Of a stretch of 7,418 nt of DNA, positions 1-7,418 are shown in pieces. Positions within the stretch are counted from its first letter, which is position 1. Each line of letters opens with the position of its first letter. The position numbers were made by a program, and so were the translations under genes. The stretch is from a virus (Duplodnaviria > Heunggongvirae > Uroviricota > Caudoviricetes): the IMG/VR virus record IMGVR_UViG_2531839131_000010; one strand, 5' to 3'. The notes beneath the pieces are model-generated. The model saw only the letters and a list, made by a program, of their open reading frames with translations. It ran no database searches and was not told the DNA's origin.

Positions 1-3000
1 GTAATTATCATCTGCGCGGGCGCATTCTGCAGGTGCCGTCGAACTATAACCCGCAGACGCGGCAATACAGCGGTATCTGGGACGGAACGTTTAAGCCAGC
101 ATACAGCAACAACATGGCCTGGTGTCTGTGGGATATGCTGACCCATCCGCGCTACGGCATGGGGAAACGTCTTGGTGCGGCGGATGTGGACAAATGGGCG
201 CTGTATGTCATCGGCCAGTACTGCGACCAGTCAGTACCGGACGGCTTTGGCGGCACGGAGCCGCGCATCACCTGTAATGCGTATCTGACCACACAGCGCA
301 AGGCGTGGGATGTGCTCAGTGATTTCTGCTCGGCGATGCGCTGTATGCCGGTATGGAACGGGCAGACGCTGACGTTCGTGCAGGACCGACCCTCGGATAA
401 GGTGTGGACCTATAACCGCAGTAATGTGGTGATGCCGGATGATGGCGCGCCGTTCCGCTACAGCTTCAGCGCCCTGAAAGACCGCCATAATGCCGTTGAG
501 GTGAACTGGATTGACCCGAACAACGGCTGGGAGACGGCGACAGAGCTTGTTGAAGATACGCAGGCCATTGCCCGTTACGGTCGTAACGTCACGAAGATGG
601 ATGCCTTTGGCTGTACCAGCCGGGGGCAGGCGCACCGCGCCGGGCTGTGGCTGATTAAAACAGAACTGCTGGAAACGCAGACCGTGGACTTCAGCGTGGG
701 CGCAGAAGGGCTTCGCCATGTACCGGGTGATGTTATTGAAATCTGCGATGATGACTATGCCGGTATCAGCACCGGTGGGCGCGTGCTGGCGGTGAACAGC
801 CGGACCCGGACGCTGACGCTCGACCGTGAAATCACGCTGCCATCCTCCGGTACCACGCTGATAAGTCTGGTTGACGGAAGTGGTAATCCGGTCAGCGTGG
901 AGGTTCAGTCCGTCACCGACGGACTTAAGGTGAAAGTGAACCGGGTTCCTGATGGCGTTGCAGAATACAGTGTGTGGGGGCTGAAGTTGCCGACGTTGCG
1001 TCAGCGCCTGTTCCGCTGTGTGAGTATCCGTGAGAACGATGACGGCACGTATGCCATCACTGCCGTGCAGCATGTACCGGAAAAAGAAGCCATCGTGGAT
1101 AACGGGGCGCACTTTGACGGCGACCAGAGCAGCACGGTGAATGGTGTCACGCCGCCAGCGGTGCAGCACCTGACCGCCGAAGTCACCGCAGACAGCGGGG
1201 AATATCAGGTGCTGGCGCGCTGGGACACGCCGAAGGTGGTGAAGGGCGTGAGCTTCCTGCTCCGTCTGACCGTAACAGCGGATGACGGCAGTGAGCGGCT
1301 GGTCAGCACGGCCCGGACGACGGAAACCACATACCGCTTCACGCAACTGGCGCTGGGGAACTACAGGCTGACAGTCCGGGCGGTAAATGCGTGGGGACAG
1401 CAGGGCGATCCTGCCACCACCACCTTCCGGATTAACGCACCTGCAAAACCCGCCACCATTGAGCTGACGCCGGGGTATTTTCAGATAACGGCGGTCCCGC
1501 GTCTTGCGGTGTATGACCCGACGGTACAGTTTGAATTCTGGTTCTCAGAAAAACGCATCACGAACACAGCACAGGTGGAAAAATCTGCCCGTTATCTGGG
1601 GACAGGCAGTCAGTGGACTGTCCAGGGGAGCCGGATTAAGCCGGGGACGGATTTCTGGTTTTACGTGCGAAGCGTCAACCTGGTGGGAAAATCTGCTTTT
1701 GTGGAAGCCAGCGGGCAGCCCAGCAATGATGGTGAAGGGTATCTGGAAATTTTCCGGGGGCTGATAGATGAGACGCTTCTTGGTCAGGCACTGAAAGAGC
1801 GCATTGATGCTTCAGCGCTGCGTACGGAGGTCACGCAACTGGAAGAAGACATCCGTCAGCGGATGGACACGGATATCGCAGAAGTGACCCGGAAAATCGG
1901 GAAGGCGGAAAACACTCTCACGCAGCTGGTTGCGAAAAAGAATGAGGACCAGGCACTGGCCATCGCGCAGGTGAACCAGAAAGTGGACCGGGTGAGCAGT
2001 GAAATCTCACAGACTGTCAGCCAGGGGCAGTCAGAAAACGCCCGACAGATAGCACAGGTCCGCCAGTACGTGGATAAAAAAGGGAGTGAAATTACCTCGA
2101 CCACGGATAAAAAGCTGGGTGACCAGGCCGTGACCATACAGCAAATCCAGCGGGTTCAGTCAGACACGCGCAATGAGCTGAATGCCATGTATATGCTGAA
2201 GGTGCAGAAAACAAAAAACGGTATTCCCTATGTGGCTGGGATTGGCGCGGGGATTGAGGATGTTGATGGTCAGACGCTGAGCAGTATTCTGCTGCAGGCT
2301 GACCGTATCGCGATGATTACCCCGGAGAACGGCAACACCACGCCGCTGTTTGTGGCGCAGGGGAATCAGCTGTTCATGAACGACGTGTTCCTGAAGCGAC
2401 TGTTTGCGGTGAGCATCACGTCATCCGGTAATCCTCCGGCATTTTCCCTGACACCGGACGGGCGGCTGACGGCGAGAAATGCTGATATCAGCGGTAACGT
2501 TAATGCGAATTCTGGGACGCTCAACAACGTCACGATTAATCAGAACTGCCGGATCCTTGGAAAACTGTCAGCCAGCCATATTGAAGGCGATATTGTCAAA
2601 ACGGTGGGTAAGGCTTTCCCGCGAAATGGAAGTTATGCCAGTGGCACGATAACCGTCACGGTTTATGATGATCAGGGATTCGACCGGCAGATTATCATTC
2701 CGCCGGTATTATTTCGTGGTACGAAACACCAGAATTTCAACAGTCATAACCAACAGTCATACTGGTATTCAACCTGTAAGCTGCAGGTACTGAAGAACGG
2801 ACAGGAAATCTTTCAGCAACCCGCGACGGATGTCAGCAGGGTATTTTCATCCGTCATTGATATGCCTGCCGGACACGGCCATGTCACCCTGACTTTCAAT
2901 GTTTCTTCATATGGTGCTAATAACTGGACGCCAACGACCAGTATCAGCGACCTTCTTGTTATTGTGATGAAGAAATCTACAGCCGGTATCAGTATCAGTT

Positions 3001-3002
3001 GA
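1..3002 (+). CDS. J: Tail tip / central tail fibre host-specificity protein, lambda J family (5'-truncated by the window edge; reading frame enters at nt 3)
   Basis: The frame is open from nt 3 to the TGA at 3000-3002; the GTG at 33 in the ORF track is internal, not the true start. The translation ([76 protein letters not shown]...) matches my recollection of phage lambda gpJ almost residue for residue over the first ~560 codons, including the fibronectin-III-like segment ([21 protein letters not shown]...[17 protein letters not shown]). A second conserved block (YVAGIG...[18 protein letters not shown]...[37 protein letters not shown]) follows a divergent coiled-coil segment, and the C-terminal ~150 residues diverge from lambda J. 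Confidence 0.95.
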
Positions 3003-3020: not shown

Positions 3021-3048
3021 GGGCGCCAGAAATGGCGCCTTTTTTATT
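3021..3048 (+). terminator. Rho-independent terminator downstream of J
   Basis: Perfect GC-rich hairpin GGCGCC (3022-3027), 6-nt loop AGAAAT, GGCGCC (3034-3039), followed directly by TTTTTTATT. It begins 19 nt after the J stop codon. Confidence 0.7.
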
Positions 3049-3069: not shown

Positions 3070-3669
3070 ATGCGTAAATTATGTGCTGTTATTCTGTCCG
3101 CAGTAGTCTGGCTGGTTGCCGCTGGTACGCCAGCGAGCGCAGCAGAACATCAGTCCACGCTGAGCGCGGGGTATCTTCATGCCCGTACGAACGCTCCCGG
3201 TAGTGATGATCTGAACGGGATTAACGTGAAATACCGTTATGAGTTTACGGACATGCTGGGTGTTGTGACGTCATTCAGTTATGCCAATGCCAAAGATGAG
3301 CAAAAAACGCATTACAGCGATACCCGCTGGCATGAGGATTCCGTGCGTAACCGCGGGTTCAGTGTGATGGCGGGGCCGTCTGTTCGCGTGAATGAATGGT
3401 TCAGCGCGTATGCGATGGCGGGTATGGCTTACAGCCGTGTGTCGACTTTCTCCGGGGATTATATCCGCGTAACTGACAACAAGGGGAAAACGCACGATGT
3501 GCTGACCGGAAGTGATGACGGTCGCCACAGCAACACGTCTCTGGCGTGGGGAGCTGGCGTGCAGTTTAACCCGACCGAATCCGTGGCCATTGATATTGCT
3601 TATGAAGTCTCCGGCAGTGGCGACTGGCGCACTGACGGTTTCATCGTGGGTGTCGGTTATAAGTTCTGA
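3070..3669 (+). CDS. lom: Lom/Ail-family outer-membrane beta-barrel protein (prophage-encoded, virulence-associated)
   Basis: 199-codon ORF with a GAGAGG Shine-Dalgarno 5 nt upstream of the ATG. N-terminal signal peptide MRKLCAVILSAVVWLVAAGTPASAAE. The C-terminus ...SGSGDWRTDGFIVGVGYKF matches lambda Lom as I recall it, with internal Lom-like blocks (GINVKYRYEFTD, SVMAGP, SAYAMAG) and a terminal aromatic residue typical of outer-membrane beta-barrels. Same position as lom in lambda, between J and stf. Confidence 0.93.
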   Translation: MRKLCAVILSAVVWLVAAGTPASAAEHQSTLSAGYLHARTNAPGSDDLNGINVKYRYEFTDMLGVVTSFSYANAKDEQKTHYSDTRWHEDSVRNRGFSVMAGPSVRVNEWFSAYAMAGMAYSRVSTFSGDYIRVTDNKGKTHDVLTGSDDGRHSNTSLAWGAGVQFNPTESVAIDIAYEVSGSGDWRTDGFIVGVGYKF

Positions 3670-3700
3670 TTAGCCAGGTAACACAGTGTTATGACAGCAT

Positions 3701-3726
3701 GCCTGTTCAATCAGGCGGGCTTTTTT
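3701..3726 (+). terminator. Possible weak rho-independent terminator after lom
   Basis: Short hairpin GCCTG (3701-3705), loop TTCAAT, CAGGC (3712-3716), then GGGC and TTTTTT (3721-3726). The stem is only 5 bp and separated from the T-tract by 4 nt, so this is tentative. Confidence 0.3.
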
Positions 3727-3737
3727 GTGGGGTGAAT

Positions 3738-6700
3738 ATGGCAGTAAAGATTTCAGGTGTACTGAAAGATGGGGCGGGTAAACCTGTCGTAAATTGTGCG
3801 ATTGAACTGCGGGCCAGAAGAACCAGCCCGACCGTTGTGGCGCACGTTGTCGCCACTTGTGTGACGGACAATAACGGTGCTTATGTGATTGAGGCTGAGC
3901 CGGGGTATTACGAGGTTGCGCTTCACCGTAACGGCTGGCAGCCAACCCGTGTCGGGGATATTTATGTGGCACCGACTGATGCACCGGGGACACTGAATGC
4001 GTTTCTGGATGCACCAAAGGATAGTGATTTACGTCCGGAGGTGATGAAGCGCTTTGAGGAAATGGTGGATGCGGTTGCCCGGCAGTCGGAGCAGGTCACC
4101 AATGATCGTGAAAGGGCAGAGGCGGTAGCGGAGGCAGCAACAAACGCAGCGAACTCTGCTCTTGACAGTAAAAATAAGGCAGAAGATCTAAAAAATAAGG
4201 CACAGCAAAATGCCGAAGCCGCTGCAGAAAGCGAACGACAGGCCGGGCAACATGTCGCTGATGCGCAGAAGATTAAGGGTGATTGCCAGACGCTGGCGGA
4301 TAACGTACAGCAGAATGCAGAATCCGTTGCCGAAGATAAAAAGCAGGTGGCACAGCTGGCATCATCTGCCACACAGGATGCGGCCCGCGCAGAGCAGGCT
4401 GTCAAGGATGCTGACTCGATAGTCCGGAAAGCGGTCGATAAACTCGGTGAAGCTGCAACGCTGACCGGCGAGGCAAAAGCCAGCGCCGAAGCGGCAGCAA
4501 AAAGCGAACAGAACGCGAAACAGCACAGGGACGAGGCGCAACGGATAGTTGATGACCTGAAGGGAAGCAATGCTTCCACGACAGAAAAAGGCCTGGTGCA
4601 ACTCTGTAGTGATACGGACAACGACAGCGAAGAACTGGCAGCCACACCGAAGGCCGTCAAAACCGTCATGGACGAGACGAAAACAAAAGCGCCGCTGGAC
4701 AGCCCGGCATTCACCGGCACGCCCACCACACCAACCCCACCGGACGATGCTGCCGGTCTGGAAACAGCGAACGCGGCATTTGTCCGCAAACTGCTCGCTG
4801 CACTGGTTGACTCGTCACCGGAAGCCCTGGACACGCTGAACGAGCTGGCAGCGGCGCTGGGAAATGACCCGAATTTTGCGACGACAGTCACCAAAGCACT
4901 GGCAGGTAAACAGCCACTCAGTGACGTGTTAACCGCAATCAGTAATCTGGAAGAACGGGCAGATAATCTTCTGTGCTTTAATCAGGACGGAAATGCTTCA
5001 CTGTCTCCACTGTCAGAAAAAGCCCGGTCACTGCTGGCACAGGCCACAGTGGAAGCTATGCGCAATGAGCTTGAGCTGAAAAGCGCAGCGGTAATGGATA
5101 TTCAGACAGACATTCACGACAGCACGAAAGGCCGCATTGCGCTTCCCGGTGCGTATGGTTACGGAATGACGGACGCCGGAGCGCGTTCAATTATTGCCAG
5201 CGATATGGCGACTGTAGCCAGAACCGCTCACAACCTGCACCCGGGACGCTATTACACCTTTGCCACACGAACGGAAGAAACAACCGGGATAACAGAAATT
5301 ATCTGGCTGGATAATGGCCGGGCCGACAAAACCAGCCAGACAGCAACAAAGCTGGTTCTGTTTTTTGGAAAAGACGGACGGATTCTTATGACCGTTCGTG
5401 GCGATAATATCTCCGCCCCGGTCACCTGGACGAATCTGACGCCACAACTTGGCAATGCAGCACAGAAGGATGCGCAGGAGAATATTTACGACCGCACCGA
5501 AGGCCGTCTGGCGATTCCCGGCATGTTTGGATTCGGGAAAGTATTTTTCATCGGCGACAGGACCGAGTTTAAAACAGAGGCCGATTTTCTCCGCTGGGTA
5601 AAAACGGCAAATCCCGGACGCTATGCCGTTTATGCAGATACAAATGCGGTAATACAGGGCGTGCTGTTCAAGGGTACCGTTGAAATTATCTGGCCGGAAC
5701 CTCAAATCAGCCATGATACGGCATATGTGGCCAAAATCATTATTTTTTACGGTATTAACGGTCATATTTATTACAATCGCTACTGGACTACCGGAGGTGG
5801 TTATCTGGTTGGCTGGGAAAACCTGAAGGTTGATGAGGCTTCACTCCGGGCACTGATTGAAACCCGCGCGCCACTGAACAGTCCGGCACTGACCGGAACG
5901 CCGTCCACGCCAACACCACCGGATGATGCAGCAGGTAATGAAATAGCCAATGCGGCGTTTGTCCGCAAACTGCTCGCCGCACTGGTTGGCTCATCACCGG
6001 AAGCCCTGGACACGCTGAACGAGCTGGCAGCGGCACTGGGCAATGACCCGAACTTTGCGACAACCGTCACTAATGCACTGGCAGGTAAACAGCCGCTTAA
6101 CGATATGTTAACGGCTATCAGCAAGGCAGGGGTGGGACAAAACTCTCTCCTTTATTTTGGTGATAACTTTAAAGCAAAAGCAATTCCATGCAGCAACAAG
6201 GCTCGCTCATTACTGGCACGAAACACGCCTGAAGCCATGCGCACGGAGCTTGAACTGAAAGCGGCTGCGACGATGGAACCCCAGAGCGATATCCGCGACC
6301 GCACACCGGGCAGACTGGCACTGTCCGGCATGCATGGATTCGGTCAGGCATTCACCAGTGCCGACGCTCTGACATTTAACGGGCAGGCCGATTTTGTTGA
6401 ATGGCTGAAAAAGGCCGCCCCGGGGCGTTATGCGGTCAGTATTGCGGACTCTTCCATGCTGCTGGTTGGCACCAAGAAATTTAACGGCACCATTGATGTG
6501 ATGTGGTCGCCCTTTGATAACGATGAGTCAGACACAATACGTAAATTCAAAACGCTGCTGTGTTTTAACCAGTATTACGAAGGTGAGCACAGTATTCATC
6601 GCCTGACTTACCGCTGGAGTGGAAACAACTGGAATGCAACAGTAAGCCCTGTCATTTACGACGGCGATTCGCTGGCGTTCTTACTGTCCCGGACAGCAGG

Positions 6701-6998
6701 CTCAGGCTCATATTTCAAATACCCGGCAGTGGGTGTTCCAGTGCTGGCTGTTTATCGCGGAACAACTTTCGGGGATAAAGAAATCAATATTGGCCTGGGT
6801 GATGTGGTGCAGGGGTCACAACTGGGCGGAGTTAATCTTTCGTGCTTAATATCTTCTCCTGGGGTTGGCTCCTACAATTCCGCACCGAGTGCAGGAGCTA
6901 CAGGGTACACTTTCCCGGGGCGTTATATGGCGCTATCCGGGGTCAGGGACTCTAAAGGAATAACCGGTCGTATCTGCCTGTTTGTGCGCATCGAGTAA
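3738..6998 (+). CDS. stf: Side tail fibre protein (lambda Stf family N-terminus; long mosaic fibre with duplicated collar segments and repeated distal domains)
   Basis: Open frame from 3699 to the TAA at 6996-6998. I place the start at the ATG at 3738 because the product then begins MAVKISGVLKDGAGKPV..., matching the lambda Stf N-terminus (MAVKISGVLKDG...) as I recall it, and a G-rich SD-like element (GGGGTG) lies just upstream. The ATG at 3699 sits inside the putative lom terminator hairpin. An Ala/Glu/Lys/Gln-rich coiled-coil shaft follows, then the conserved phage tail fibre segment SPA(F/L)TGTP(T/S)TPTPPDDAAG...ANAAFV...LDTLNELAAALGNDPNFATTVT.ALAGKQP, present twice. Confidence 0.9.
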   Translation: MAVKISGVLKDGAGKPVVNCAIELRARRTSPTVVAHVVATCVTDNNGAYVIEAEPGYYEVALHRNGWQPTRVGDIYVAPTDAPGTLNAFLDAPKDSDLRPEVMKRFEEMVDAVARQSEQVTNDRERAEAVAEAATNAANSALDSKNKAEDLKNKAQQNAEAAAESERQAGQHVADAQKIKGDCQTLADNVQQNAESVAEDKKQVAQLASSATQDAARAEQAVKDADSIVRKAVDKLGEAATLTGEAKASAEAAAKSEQNAKQHRDEAQRIVDDLKGSNASTTEKGLVQLCSDTDNDSEELAATPKAVKTVMDETKTKAPLDSPAFTGTPTTPTPPDDAAGLETANAAFVRKLLAALVDSSPEALDTLNELAAALGNDPNFATTVTKALAGKQPLSDVLTAISNLEERADNLLCFNQDGNASLSPLSEKARSLLAQATVEAMRNELELKSAAVMDIQTDIHDSTKGRIALPGAYGYGMTDAGARSIIASDMATVARTAHNLHPGRYYTFATRTEETTGITEIIWLDNGRADKTSQTATKLVLFFGKDGRILMTVRGDNISAPVTWTNLTPQLGNAAQKDAQENIYDRTEGRLAIPGMFGFGKVFFIGDRTEFKTEADFLRWVKTANPGRYAVYADTNAVIQGVLFKGTVEIIWPEPQISHDTAYVAKIIIFYGINGHIYYNRYWTTGGGYLVGWENLKVDEASLRALIETRAPLNSPALTGTPSTPTPPDDAAGNEIANAAFVRKLLAALVGSSPEALDTLNELAAALGNDPNFATTVTNALAGKQPLNDMLTAISKAGVGQNSLLYFGDNFKAKAIPCSNKARSLLARNTPEAMRTELELKAAATMEPQSDIRDRTPGRLALSGMHGFGQAFTSADALTFNGQADFVEWLKKAAPGRYAVSIADSSMLLVGTKKFNGTIDVMWSPFDNDESDTIRKFKTLLCFNQYYEGEHSIHRLTYRWSGNNWNATVSPVIYDGDSLAFLLSRTAGSGSYFKYPAVGVPVLAVYRGTTFGDKEINIGLGDVVQGSQLGGVNLSCLISSPGVGSYNSAPSAGATGYTFPGRYMALSGVRDSKGITGRICLFVRIE
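4686..4943 (+). repeat. Intragenic direct repeat, copy A (86-codon tail fibre collar segment inside stf)
   Basis: Encodes KAPLDSPAFTGTPTTPTPPDDAAGLETANAAFVRKLLAALVDSSPEALDTLNELAAALGNDPNFATTVTKALAGKQPLSDVLTAIS. It recurs 1179 nt downstream with about 10 amino-acid differences out of 86 by my count, and near-identical nucleotide runs such as ccggaagccctggacacgctgaacgagctggcagcgg. Confidence 0.9.
5865..6122 (+). repeat. Intragenic direct repeat, copy B (86-codon tail fibre collar segment inside stf)
   Basis: Encodes RAPLNSPALTGTPSTPTPPDDAAGNEIANAAFVRKLLAALVGSSPEALDTLNELAAALGNDPNFATTVTNALAGKQPLNDMLTAIS. Same frame and orientation as copy A, offset exactly 1179 nt (393 codons). Confidence 0.9.
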
Positions 6999-7011: not shown

Positions 7012-7418
7012 ATGAAAATCAGAGCGGTAAAGGGCATCAGAAACGCCCATTATCTTGAAAATGGTGCGGTTGACTGCGAGGTGTTATTTGAAGGTGAAAC
7101 GGAATTCGTCCCGTATACCGCCATGCAGGATGATACCGCACCGACAGGCCAGCGCATCTGGGAAGAGTTGCAGAACGGCAAATGGGGCGAAATCGCCCCT
7201 TTCACTGTCACGCCGGAACTTATCGCCGCGGCGAAGGATGCCAAAAAGCAGGAAATCGAGGCATGGCGCACAGAACAGGAAGCACTGCCGTTCACCTTTG
7301 AATGGAACGGTCGCACCTGGAACGCTGGCCCCGACTCAATGGCCCGTCTTTATCCGGTAGTAATGGCGGCGAAATCCGATACGGCACGAACCGCCCTTGC
7401 ATGGGGTGATGCCGATAA
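7012..7418 (+). CDS. Putative tail fibre assembly / chaperone-like protein (3'-truncated by the window edge); function inferred mainly from position
   Basis: ATG at 7012 is preceded by GGGGAA (7000-7005) with a 6-nt spacer and lies only 13 nt after the stf stop, suggesting translational coupling. The frame stays open to the window end (MKIRAVKGIRNAHYLENGAVDCEVLFEGETEFVPYTAMQDD...FEWNGRTWNAGPDSMARLYPVV...). It is absent from the ORF track only because no stop falls inside the window. It occupies the tfa slot of the lambda J-lom-stf-tfa order. The sequence does not resemble lambda Tfa at the N-terminus, so the family assignment is uncertain. Confidence 0.5.
   Translation, partial: MKIRAVKGIRNAHYLENGAVDCEVLFEGETEFVPYTAMQDDTAPTGQRIWEELQNGKWGEIAPFTVTPELIAAAKDAKKQEIEAWRTEQEALPFTFEWNGRTWNAGPDSMARLYPVVMAAKSDTARTALAWGDAD

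Follow-up and report, generated by a model that had tools for sequence, protein, structure and literature searches.

Three copies of a predicted knob-like domain and a conserved tip in the distal side tail fiber of a lambdoid prophage

We analyzed a 7,418-nucleotide (nt) stretch of DNA, hereafter the window, from a Caudoviricetes virus (IMG/VR record IMGVR_UViG_2531839131_000010). The window, which is the whole of contig APYL01000108.1 (assembly GCA_000357185.2), covers the last genes of the tail operon in a lambdoid prophage and carries the C-terminal part of J, lom, the side tail fiber gene stf, and a gene for a Tfa-like tail fiber assembly protein (Table 1). The distal part of Stf contains three homologous copies of one domain of ∼118 residues, referred to here as units 1, 2, and 3. 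Two types of unit are distinguished within the wider family: type A resembles unit 1 and bears a W-[LIV]-D-N signature, and type B resembles units 2 and 3. Based on the domain grammar of this family, Stf in the window reads as anchor, coiled coil, collar 1, A, B, collar 2, B, and tip. An earlier, sequence-only reading of this DNA had proposed the same succession of collars and units (collar 1, unit 1, unit 2, collar 2, and unit 3).

Each unit opens with a related motif: DIHDSTKGRIALPGAYGYG in unit 1 (nt 5109 to 5165, amino acid [aa] 471), NIYDRTEGRLAIPGMFGFG in unit 2 (nt 5481 to 5537, aa 595), and DIRDRTPGRLALSGMHGFG in unit 3 (nt 6288 to 6344, aa 864). Amino acid numbers of units, helix, and tip are counted in the open reading frame starting at 3699. 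A PGRY motif follows at nt 5241, 5613, and 6420, respectively, as does a hydrophobic-Trp motif (EIIW, EIIW, and DVMW at nt 5295, 5682, and 6495). All of these strings lie where the sequence-only reading had placed them, and its claim of three diverged copies is borne out. The spacing from unit 1 to unit 2 is exactly 124 codons. By BLASTP, units 1 and 2 share 32% identity over 98 aa (E = 1.6e-11), units 2 and 3 share 48% over 73 aa (E = 1.3e-20), and units 1 and 3 share 27% over 93 to 120 aa (E = 9e-8). The corresponding Smith-Waterman scores were 118, 177, and 94, compared with a shuffle mean of 27 (standard deviation, 4.6), giving z-scores of 19.5, 33.0, and 14.7. The similarity persists outside the listed motifs, as residues past position 50, which leave out both the N-terminal and PGRY motifs, gave z-scores of 8.1, 4.6, and 3.1. 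A family hidden Markov model (HMM) run on the six-frame translation of the window retrieved exactly three full-length copies (nt 5109, 5481, and 6288) and no fourth. Chance recurrence of short motifs, supported only by limited overall identity between units 1 and 3, is refuted by pairwise E values of 9e-8 to 1e-20, z-scores of 15 to 33, a single HMM that spans all three units end to end, and the presence of the same domain in 94 independent protein clusters.

Table 1. Features of the window, with coordinates in nt from its first letter
Feature	Coordinates	Strand	Basis and remarks
J, C-terminal part	33-3002
lom	3070-3669
Side tail fiber gene stf	3738..6998	+	ORF list; PF08400 phage_tail_N, E 2.7e-42; PHROG 2636, E 1e-283
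N-terminal tail-attachment domain, common to lambda Stf	3738..4130	+	PF08400 residues 1-131; PDB 9e7m/9mgh over residues 1-92
Phage_fiber_2 repeat, PF03406	4575..4694	+	Pfam residues 280-319, E 7e-16; Mu/P1 S protein 5yvq/8ju3 matches here too
Collar-plus-helix module 1 (APLDSPAFTGTP ... ELELKSAAVMDIQT)	4689..5108	+	73% to module 2; 9d93 tail collar fiber gp4, E 6.5e-10
Unit 1, type A (W-[LIV]-D-N signature), predicted knob-like domain	5109..5468	+	HMM i-E 1e-32
Unit 2, type B, predicted knob-like domain; unit used for structure model	5481..5840	+	HMM i-E 3e-49
Collar-plus-helix module 2	5868..6287	+	Repeat of module 1; P1/P7 S gene DNA match
Unit 3, type B, predicted knob-like domain fused to tip	6288..6653	+	HMM i-E 1.6e-31
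C-terminal tip, 114 aa (aa 986-1099)	6654..6995	+	Homologous in 55/70 family proteins; PHROG 2636 332-568 covers unit 3 + tip
Tfa-like tail fiber assembly gene	7012..7418	+	Called gene, weak DUF4376 match; cut by contig end

The first and third units are each preceded by a collar-plus-helix module, and the two modules (aa 328 to 470 and 721 to 863) share 73% identity across 143 aa (E = 9e-59). A similar helix ahead of copies 1 and 3, remarked upon in the sequence-only reading, is confirmed (57% over 44 aa, E = 4e-12) and constitutes just the tail end of this 143-aa module. At the DNA level, the modules contain a 257-nt direct repeat (4689 to 4945 and 5868 to 6124) that is 85% identical overall and 90 to 92% identical in its center. 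The two repeat copies are in frame, at a spacing of 1,179 nt (393 codons). Were they to recombine, exactly the collar-unit 1-unit 2 block would be excised, and a natural homolog, P0026 (662 aa), does lack collar-A-B and resembles the product of such an event. Thus, collar-A-B appears to be an optional in-frame extension of the shaft, acquired or deleted via the collar repeats. The near-identical collar modules would then serve as recombination joints at which collar-A-B blocks are inserted or lost in frame.

A stretch of ∼120 nt in module 2 (5977 to 6098) also resembles the S tail fiber gene of phages P1 and P7, matching its constant part Sc ("repeated element b2") at 85 to 87% DNA identity. 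This match raised the idea that the distal part of stf is an invertible segment of the Mu/P1/e14 type, which we rejected in the absence of suitable sites: the window contains no cix/hix-like inversion site, even when three mismatches are permitted. It also contains no meaningful inverted repeats, and the contig stops ahead of any place where an invertase gene could appear.

The stf gene encodes 1,086 aa from the ATG at 3738 and 1,099 aa from the ATG at 3699 selected by the gene caller. The true start is probably 3738, because the shorter product (MAVKISG...) and the Ur-lambda Stf collar chain 9e7m_Ta align residue for residue from position 1 of each (E = 4e-21) and because a terminator-like hairpin with a T-run after lom (3701 to 3720) falls inside the 3699 extension. 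Terminator-like hairpins are found directly after both J (3021 to 3040) and lom, though stf and tfa lie downstream. Between positions 3000 and 7418, a search for sigma-70-like promoters returned 0 matches, compared with 3.2 expected.

The segment that follows unit 3 went unmentioned in the sequence-only reading. Most family proteins (55/70; 79%) end 99 to 119 aa past their last unit, and all 55 of these tails are homologous to the tip in the window, with the consensus GGLxLAAYxG...RG....GSRL...LPGxYxALSG...GLFxRIA. Neither Pfam nor the PDB sequences yielded a match to the tip; an SH3-like resemblance of the string LVLALYDY was not significant (E = 0.35). A fourth PGRY (YTFPGRYMALSG; nt 6915 to 6926, aa 1073 to 1076) lies within the conserved tip motif LPGxYxALSG. 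We rejected this occurrence as a fourth unit, since hhalign comparison of the unit and tip profiles shows no relation (probability, 0.5%). The tip is probably the receptor- and chaperone-binding end of the fiber.

Neither Pfam nor NCBIfam scans returned a match for the three units, and 42 diverse family members scanned against Pfam gave nothing better than E = 0.016. Searching the PDB by sequence and by profile likewise retrieved nothing for units or tip, whether the query was the whole protein or one of the two domain profiles. The sole library match for the units is the generic PHROG 2636 ("tail fiber protein"), a profile without a domain-level description that also matches Stf as a whole. 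Units 1, 2, and 3 each align to its positions 332 to 452 (E = 1.4e-10, 6.5e-37, and 5e-67, the last for unit 3 together with the tip, positions 332 to 568). The best PDB match came from the V-ATPase A subunit, to which the unit sequence GRLAIPGAFGxGK bears some likeness (PDB profile matches 5x09 and 3m4y, E = 0.24 to 0.44 over 27 residues). We regard this resemblance to a Walker A motif of P-loop NTPases as chance; the position after G19 of the unit is variable, no Ser or Thr follows, and the Walker A pattern GxxxxGK[ST] is not conserved.

A profile of the three units searched against 1.84 billion representative proteins retrieved 94 clusters at E ≤ 1e-3 and 70 at E ≤ 1e-10, with one to three unit copies per protein; a homolog search with a single unit retrieved just 11 short fragments. 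All ten family proteins that were scanned are tail fibers anchored by PF08400 (lambdoid) or PF12571 (P2 type), and some bear Peptidase_S74, Collar, or Gp34_trimer far downstream. The domain occurs in 13 of 50,697 phage records, namely, Rac-SA53, SerU-LTIIb, phiP27, the Vequintavirinae Av-05 and TH18-like phages, the jumbo phage Goslar, and one "Actinobacillus" phage. Close DNA relatives of units 1 and 2 are present in 45 of 5,426 complete Escherichia coli genomes. The unit family is small and, among the proteins examined, is found solely in tail fibers.

Unit-encoding fragments and full genes are called "shikimate transporter" in NCBI/RefSeq (P0001, P0003, P0004, and P0009; H35 to H37, from E. 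coli STEC306 to STEC308), which looks like a propagated misannotation. In PP818812.1 (H2), a phage recorded on Actinobacillus pleuropneumoniae, the fiber gene is ∼86% DNA identical to stf of this E. coli prophage; its host assignment or sequence origin deserves checking.

The family displays a clear domain grammar. Type A never adjoins the tip but is always followed, after 1 to 9 residues, by another unit, which is of type B in six proteins and again of type A in one. Two nonadjacent type B units are separated by a constant gap of 148 to 149 aa, the length of one collar module. In some proteins the units lie mid-fiber, 700 to 990 aa upstream of unrelated distal ends (e.g., Peptidase_S74 and Gp34_trimer).

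Comparison with homologs indicates which segments are inherited together. Relative to Rac-SA53, Stf in the window is 96% identical in collar 1, 87% in unit 1, 70% in unit 2, and 79% in collar 2, with 32% in unit 3 and 35% in the tip. Relative to P0026, the values are 97% in the anchor, 95% in collar 2, 86% in unit 3, and 96% in the tip. Across six homologs, unit 3 and the tip covary in identity (32/35, 90/71, 33/39, 73/66, 86/96, and 57/70%); thus, unit 3 and the tip, probably along with Tfa, behave as one exchangeable cassette. The inheritance of units 1 and 2 goes with collar 1, not with unit 3 and the tip, and unit 1 remains 87 to 91% conserved between fibers whose tips are only 35 to 39% identical. 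The Tfa-like protein in the window is 78% identical to tail4 of Rac-SA53 and unrelated to TfaR of K-12, which suggests that chaperone type follows tip type.

The closest known systems differ in how far the resemblance extends. Rac-SA53 tail3 (ALP46863.1) and the homologs P0012 and P0013 are true homologs with the identical layout collar-A-B-collar-B-tip. Units 1 and 2 and the Tfa partner of Rac-SA53 are well conserved, whereas its divergent unit 3 and tip represent a different specificity cassette. In Av-05 gp078, vB_EcoM_TH18 peg80, and Goslar A0A482GGW0, the domain family is present as tandem pairs, either A-B or A-A. These fibers have other N-terminal anchors and distal ends and belong to virulent myoviruses instead of a lambdoid prophage. 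Unit 1 and the Av-05 domain share 71% identity in protein and 80 to 85% in DNA (over 140 to 220 nt). The DNA of unit 1 (5157 to 5377; 3001 to 3221 in L002 and 3001 to 3137 in L003) shows this same 80 to 85% identity to the fiber genes of several virulent Vequintavirinae (Av-05, TH18, 18-1-2, and others). Together with the occurrence of the family in Goslar, this identity points to a fairly recent exchange of the unit module between temperate and virulent coliphages.

Ur-lambda Stf and K-12 StfR share with Stf in the window the PF08400 N-terminal domain (9E7M) and the lom-stf-tfa gene order. Distally, lambda Stf forms an OmpC-binding, His-rich needle like that of T4 gp37 (PMC12617516). K-12 StfR shows the GAHTHS repeats of a gp37-like needle, and Stf in the window has none. 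The unit and tip HMMs found no match in lambda stf or K-12 StfR, in agreement with the sequence-only reading, which had not recognized the distal part as a lambda- or T4-type tip. We also rejected the designation "StfR-type" for the tip described here, as K-12 StfR has a gp37-like tip and lacks both the unit and this tip.

To place the unit structurally, we relied on AlphaFold2 (AF2) monomer models. A model of unit 2 built with a 10-sequence alignment was mediocre (predicted local distance difference test [pLDDT] score of 65), and one built with 42 diverse family sequences reached a pLDDT of 88.2 and a predicted template modeling score of 0.77, with a core above 90. The modeled elements are a short strand at residues 28 to 30, a helix at 33 to 42, and strands at 46 to 52, 63 to 70, 85 to 91, 96 to 102, and ∼113 to 115, i.e., one helix packed on a five- to six-stranded antiparallel sheet. 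In Foldseek searches of the PDB, fiber proteins were among the top matches (9EUF chains 8 and 5, 6CL6, and 5M9F), albeit weakly (E = 0.09 to 0.5). Structure matches in BFVD were Goslar and Av-05 as true homologs, followed by many fiber proteins.

Knob-like domains have been defined as five- to six-stranded antiparallel sheets with loops, of which one may carry a helix, that often occur in tandem; in the trimer, the sheets are buried, with both faces hydrophobic and the loops outside (Buth et al. 2018, PMC6116203). Relatives named in that work include 5EFV, 5M9F, T4 gp34, and 6EU4. The unit model shows the antiparallel sheet, variable loops, and short helix of this class. Its location is also that of a knob, within the fiber between rod-like segments: units 1 and 2 form a tandem with a 4- to 9-aa linker, of the 16 family proteins holding more than one unit, 9 contain tandem pairs, and the units come after collar and helix modules. 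Because the modeled sheet, loops, and helix fit this definition and the model resembles fiber-protein structures, we place the unit in the knob class. It may be likened to Knob1 and Knob2 of the R1 and R2 pyocins (6CL6 and 6CU2), phi11 gp45 (5EFV), phage K gp144 (5M9F), the phi812 receptor-binding proteins (9EUF), T4 gp34 (5NXH), and AS12 gp42 (6EU4). The unit differs from these knobs in its length (∼118 versus ∼83 aa), in its own conserved 19-residue N-terminal motif and PGRY motif, and in the lack of detectable sequence similarity. Thus, the unit is predicted to belong structurally to a known class and yet to constitute a separate family by sequence.

Sequence conservation across the family is compatible with such a fold. 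The N-terminal motif has the lowest column entropy (1.0 bit), followed by the strands and PGRY region (1.5 to 2.5), and four loops at residues 20 to 32, 53 to 62, 71 to 84, and 103 to 110 have the highest (2.7 to 3.1). Strand 4 contains five consecutive hydrophobic positions and strand 5 contains three. These runs fit a sheet buried on both faces; like the entropy profile, they are consistent with, but no proof of, a trimeric knob.

We therefore favor, at a probability of roughly 60%, a reading in which the units are copies of an α/β domain that forms an unnamed sequence family within the knob-like class and that provides beads in the trimeric shaft, with specificity residing in a tip cassette. 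Each unit would form a three-lobed bead around the fiber axis. The N-terminal strand (DIxDRTxGRLAxPGxFGxG), the most conserved element and one that is poorly modeled in a monomer, and the central strands, both of whose faces are hydrophobic, would probably make up an interchain core that helps set the register of the trimer, and the variable loops are probably turned to solvent. Units 1 and 2 would sit in the shaft as two knobs in tandem, recalling Knob1-Knob2 of R-pyocin fibers, and unit 3 would be welded to the tip as the exchangeable specificity cassette, whose folding the downstream Tfa-like protein probably aids. The units would thereby supply folding register and a rigid, spaced structure to the distal shaft. 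Primary receptor contact would most likely lie in the tip, possibly with unit 3, and the knob loops may make weak secondary contacts with surface glycans. By analogy to pyocin Knob2 and the K1F β-prism, accessory carbohydrate contact through the variable loops is possible.

Several points weigh against this reading. No sequence-profile link to known knob families was found, as the PDB profile search was empty, and hhalign comparison of the unit profile with a Gp34_trimer segment gave a probability of 0.1%. The first 20 residues of the unit reach a pLDDT of only 57 to 65 in the monomer model, and the trimeric knob arrangement is an inference. Buth et al. have also argued that Knob2 helps to set the killing spectrum of pyocins (PMC6116203), which bears on a direct receptor role for the units; we consider such a role unlikely.

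In its strongest form, a receptor role would make the units the main receptor or carbohydrate binders, with three lectin-like sites per chain engaging lipopolysaccharide, O-antigen, or capsule multivalently. In favor of this view, fibers that bind saccharides do contain knob-like domains: the K1F β-prism binds sialic acid, Knob2 is the most variable region of the pyocin fiber (PMC6116203), and the unit itself possesses four highly variable loops. Unit 3 moreover diverges as quickly as the tip. Unit 1, however, is retained at 87 to 91% identity where tips are 35 to 39% identical, and at 71% in a virulent Vequintavirinae phage. The mid-fiber units far upstream of unrelated distal ends and the dedicated conserved tip that 79% of family proteins carry behind their last unit also argue against this alternative, as do the invariant Gly, Trp, Tyr, and Pro residues, which look structural and unlike a conserved binding pocket. 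We thus regard it as doubtful. The receptor-binding function suggested in the sequence-only reading is not the best interpretation of the units, given the conserved 114-aa tip behind unit 3 and the occurrence of units mid-fiber with differing distal ends.

Alternatively, the units could be docking platforms, either for a persistently bound Tfa-like chaperone or adhesin or for a second fiber in a branched apparatus, as in Vequintavirinae. This explanation is improbable. Branching is not known from lambdoid Stf fibers, and the covariation of Tfa type with the cassette, which might suggest docking, is equally explained by the tip alone. The domain does occur in fibers of Vequintavirinae, which carry several different tail fibers (PMC12143355).

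A related proposal is that the units act as independent, spaced glycan-binding sites, so that together with the tip the fiber would possess two or three separated contact zones, with the collar repeats allowing modules to be stacked or removed. We view this as a minor possibility. If true, stacking or removal of collar-A-B and collar-B-tip modules would tune the length and valency of the fiber in frame, using a family common to temperate lambdoid, P2-like, virulent rV5-like, and jumbo Escherichia phages.

On the favored reading of the units as shaft beads, what is new is modest. Knob folds as a class are already well known, as is the modular and recombining character of tail fiber genes, and the general understanding of tail fibers is unchanged. 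The suggestion that the repeated domain is an uncharacterized fold stands insofar as the units have no sequence match in Pfam, NCBIfam, or the PDB; the predicted fold, in contrast, is that of a known knob bead. The finding thus amounts to a useful annotation and not to a new kind of receptor-binding fold. It comprises two unannotated domain families (the ∼110-aa tip as well as the ∼118-aa unit), together with a clear domain grammar and precise module boundaries. Since neither family has a Pfam, NCBIfam, or PDB entry, defining both would improve annotation, and the grammar of A-B pairs, 149-aa collar joints, and B-tip cassettes could serve for engineering lambdoid and P2-type fibers and for host-range prediction.

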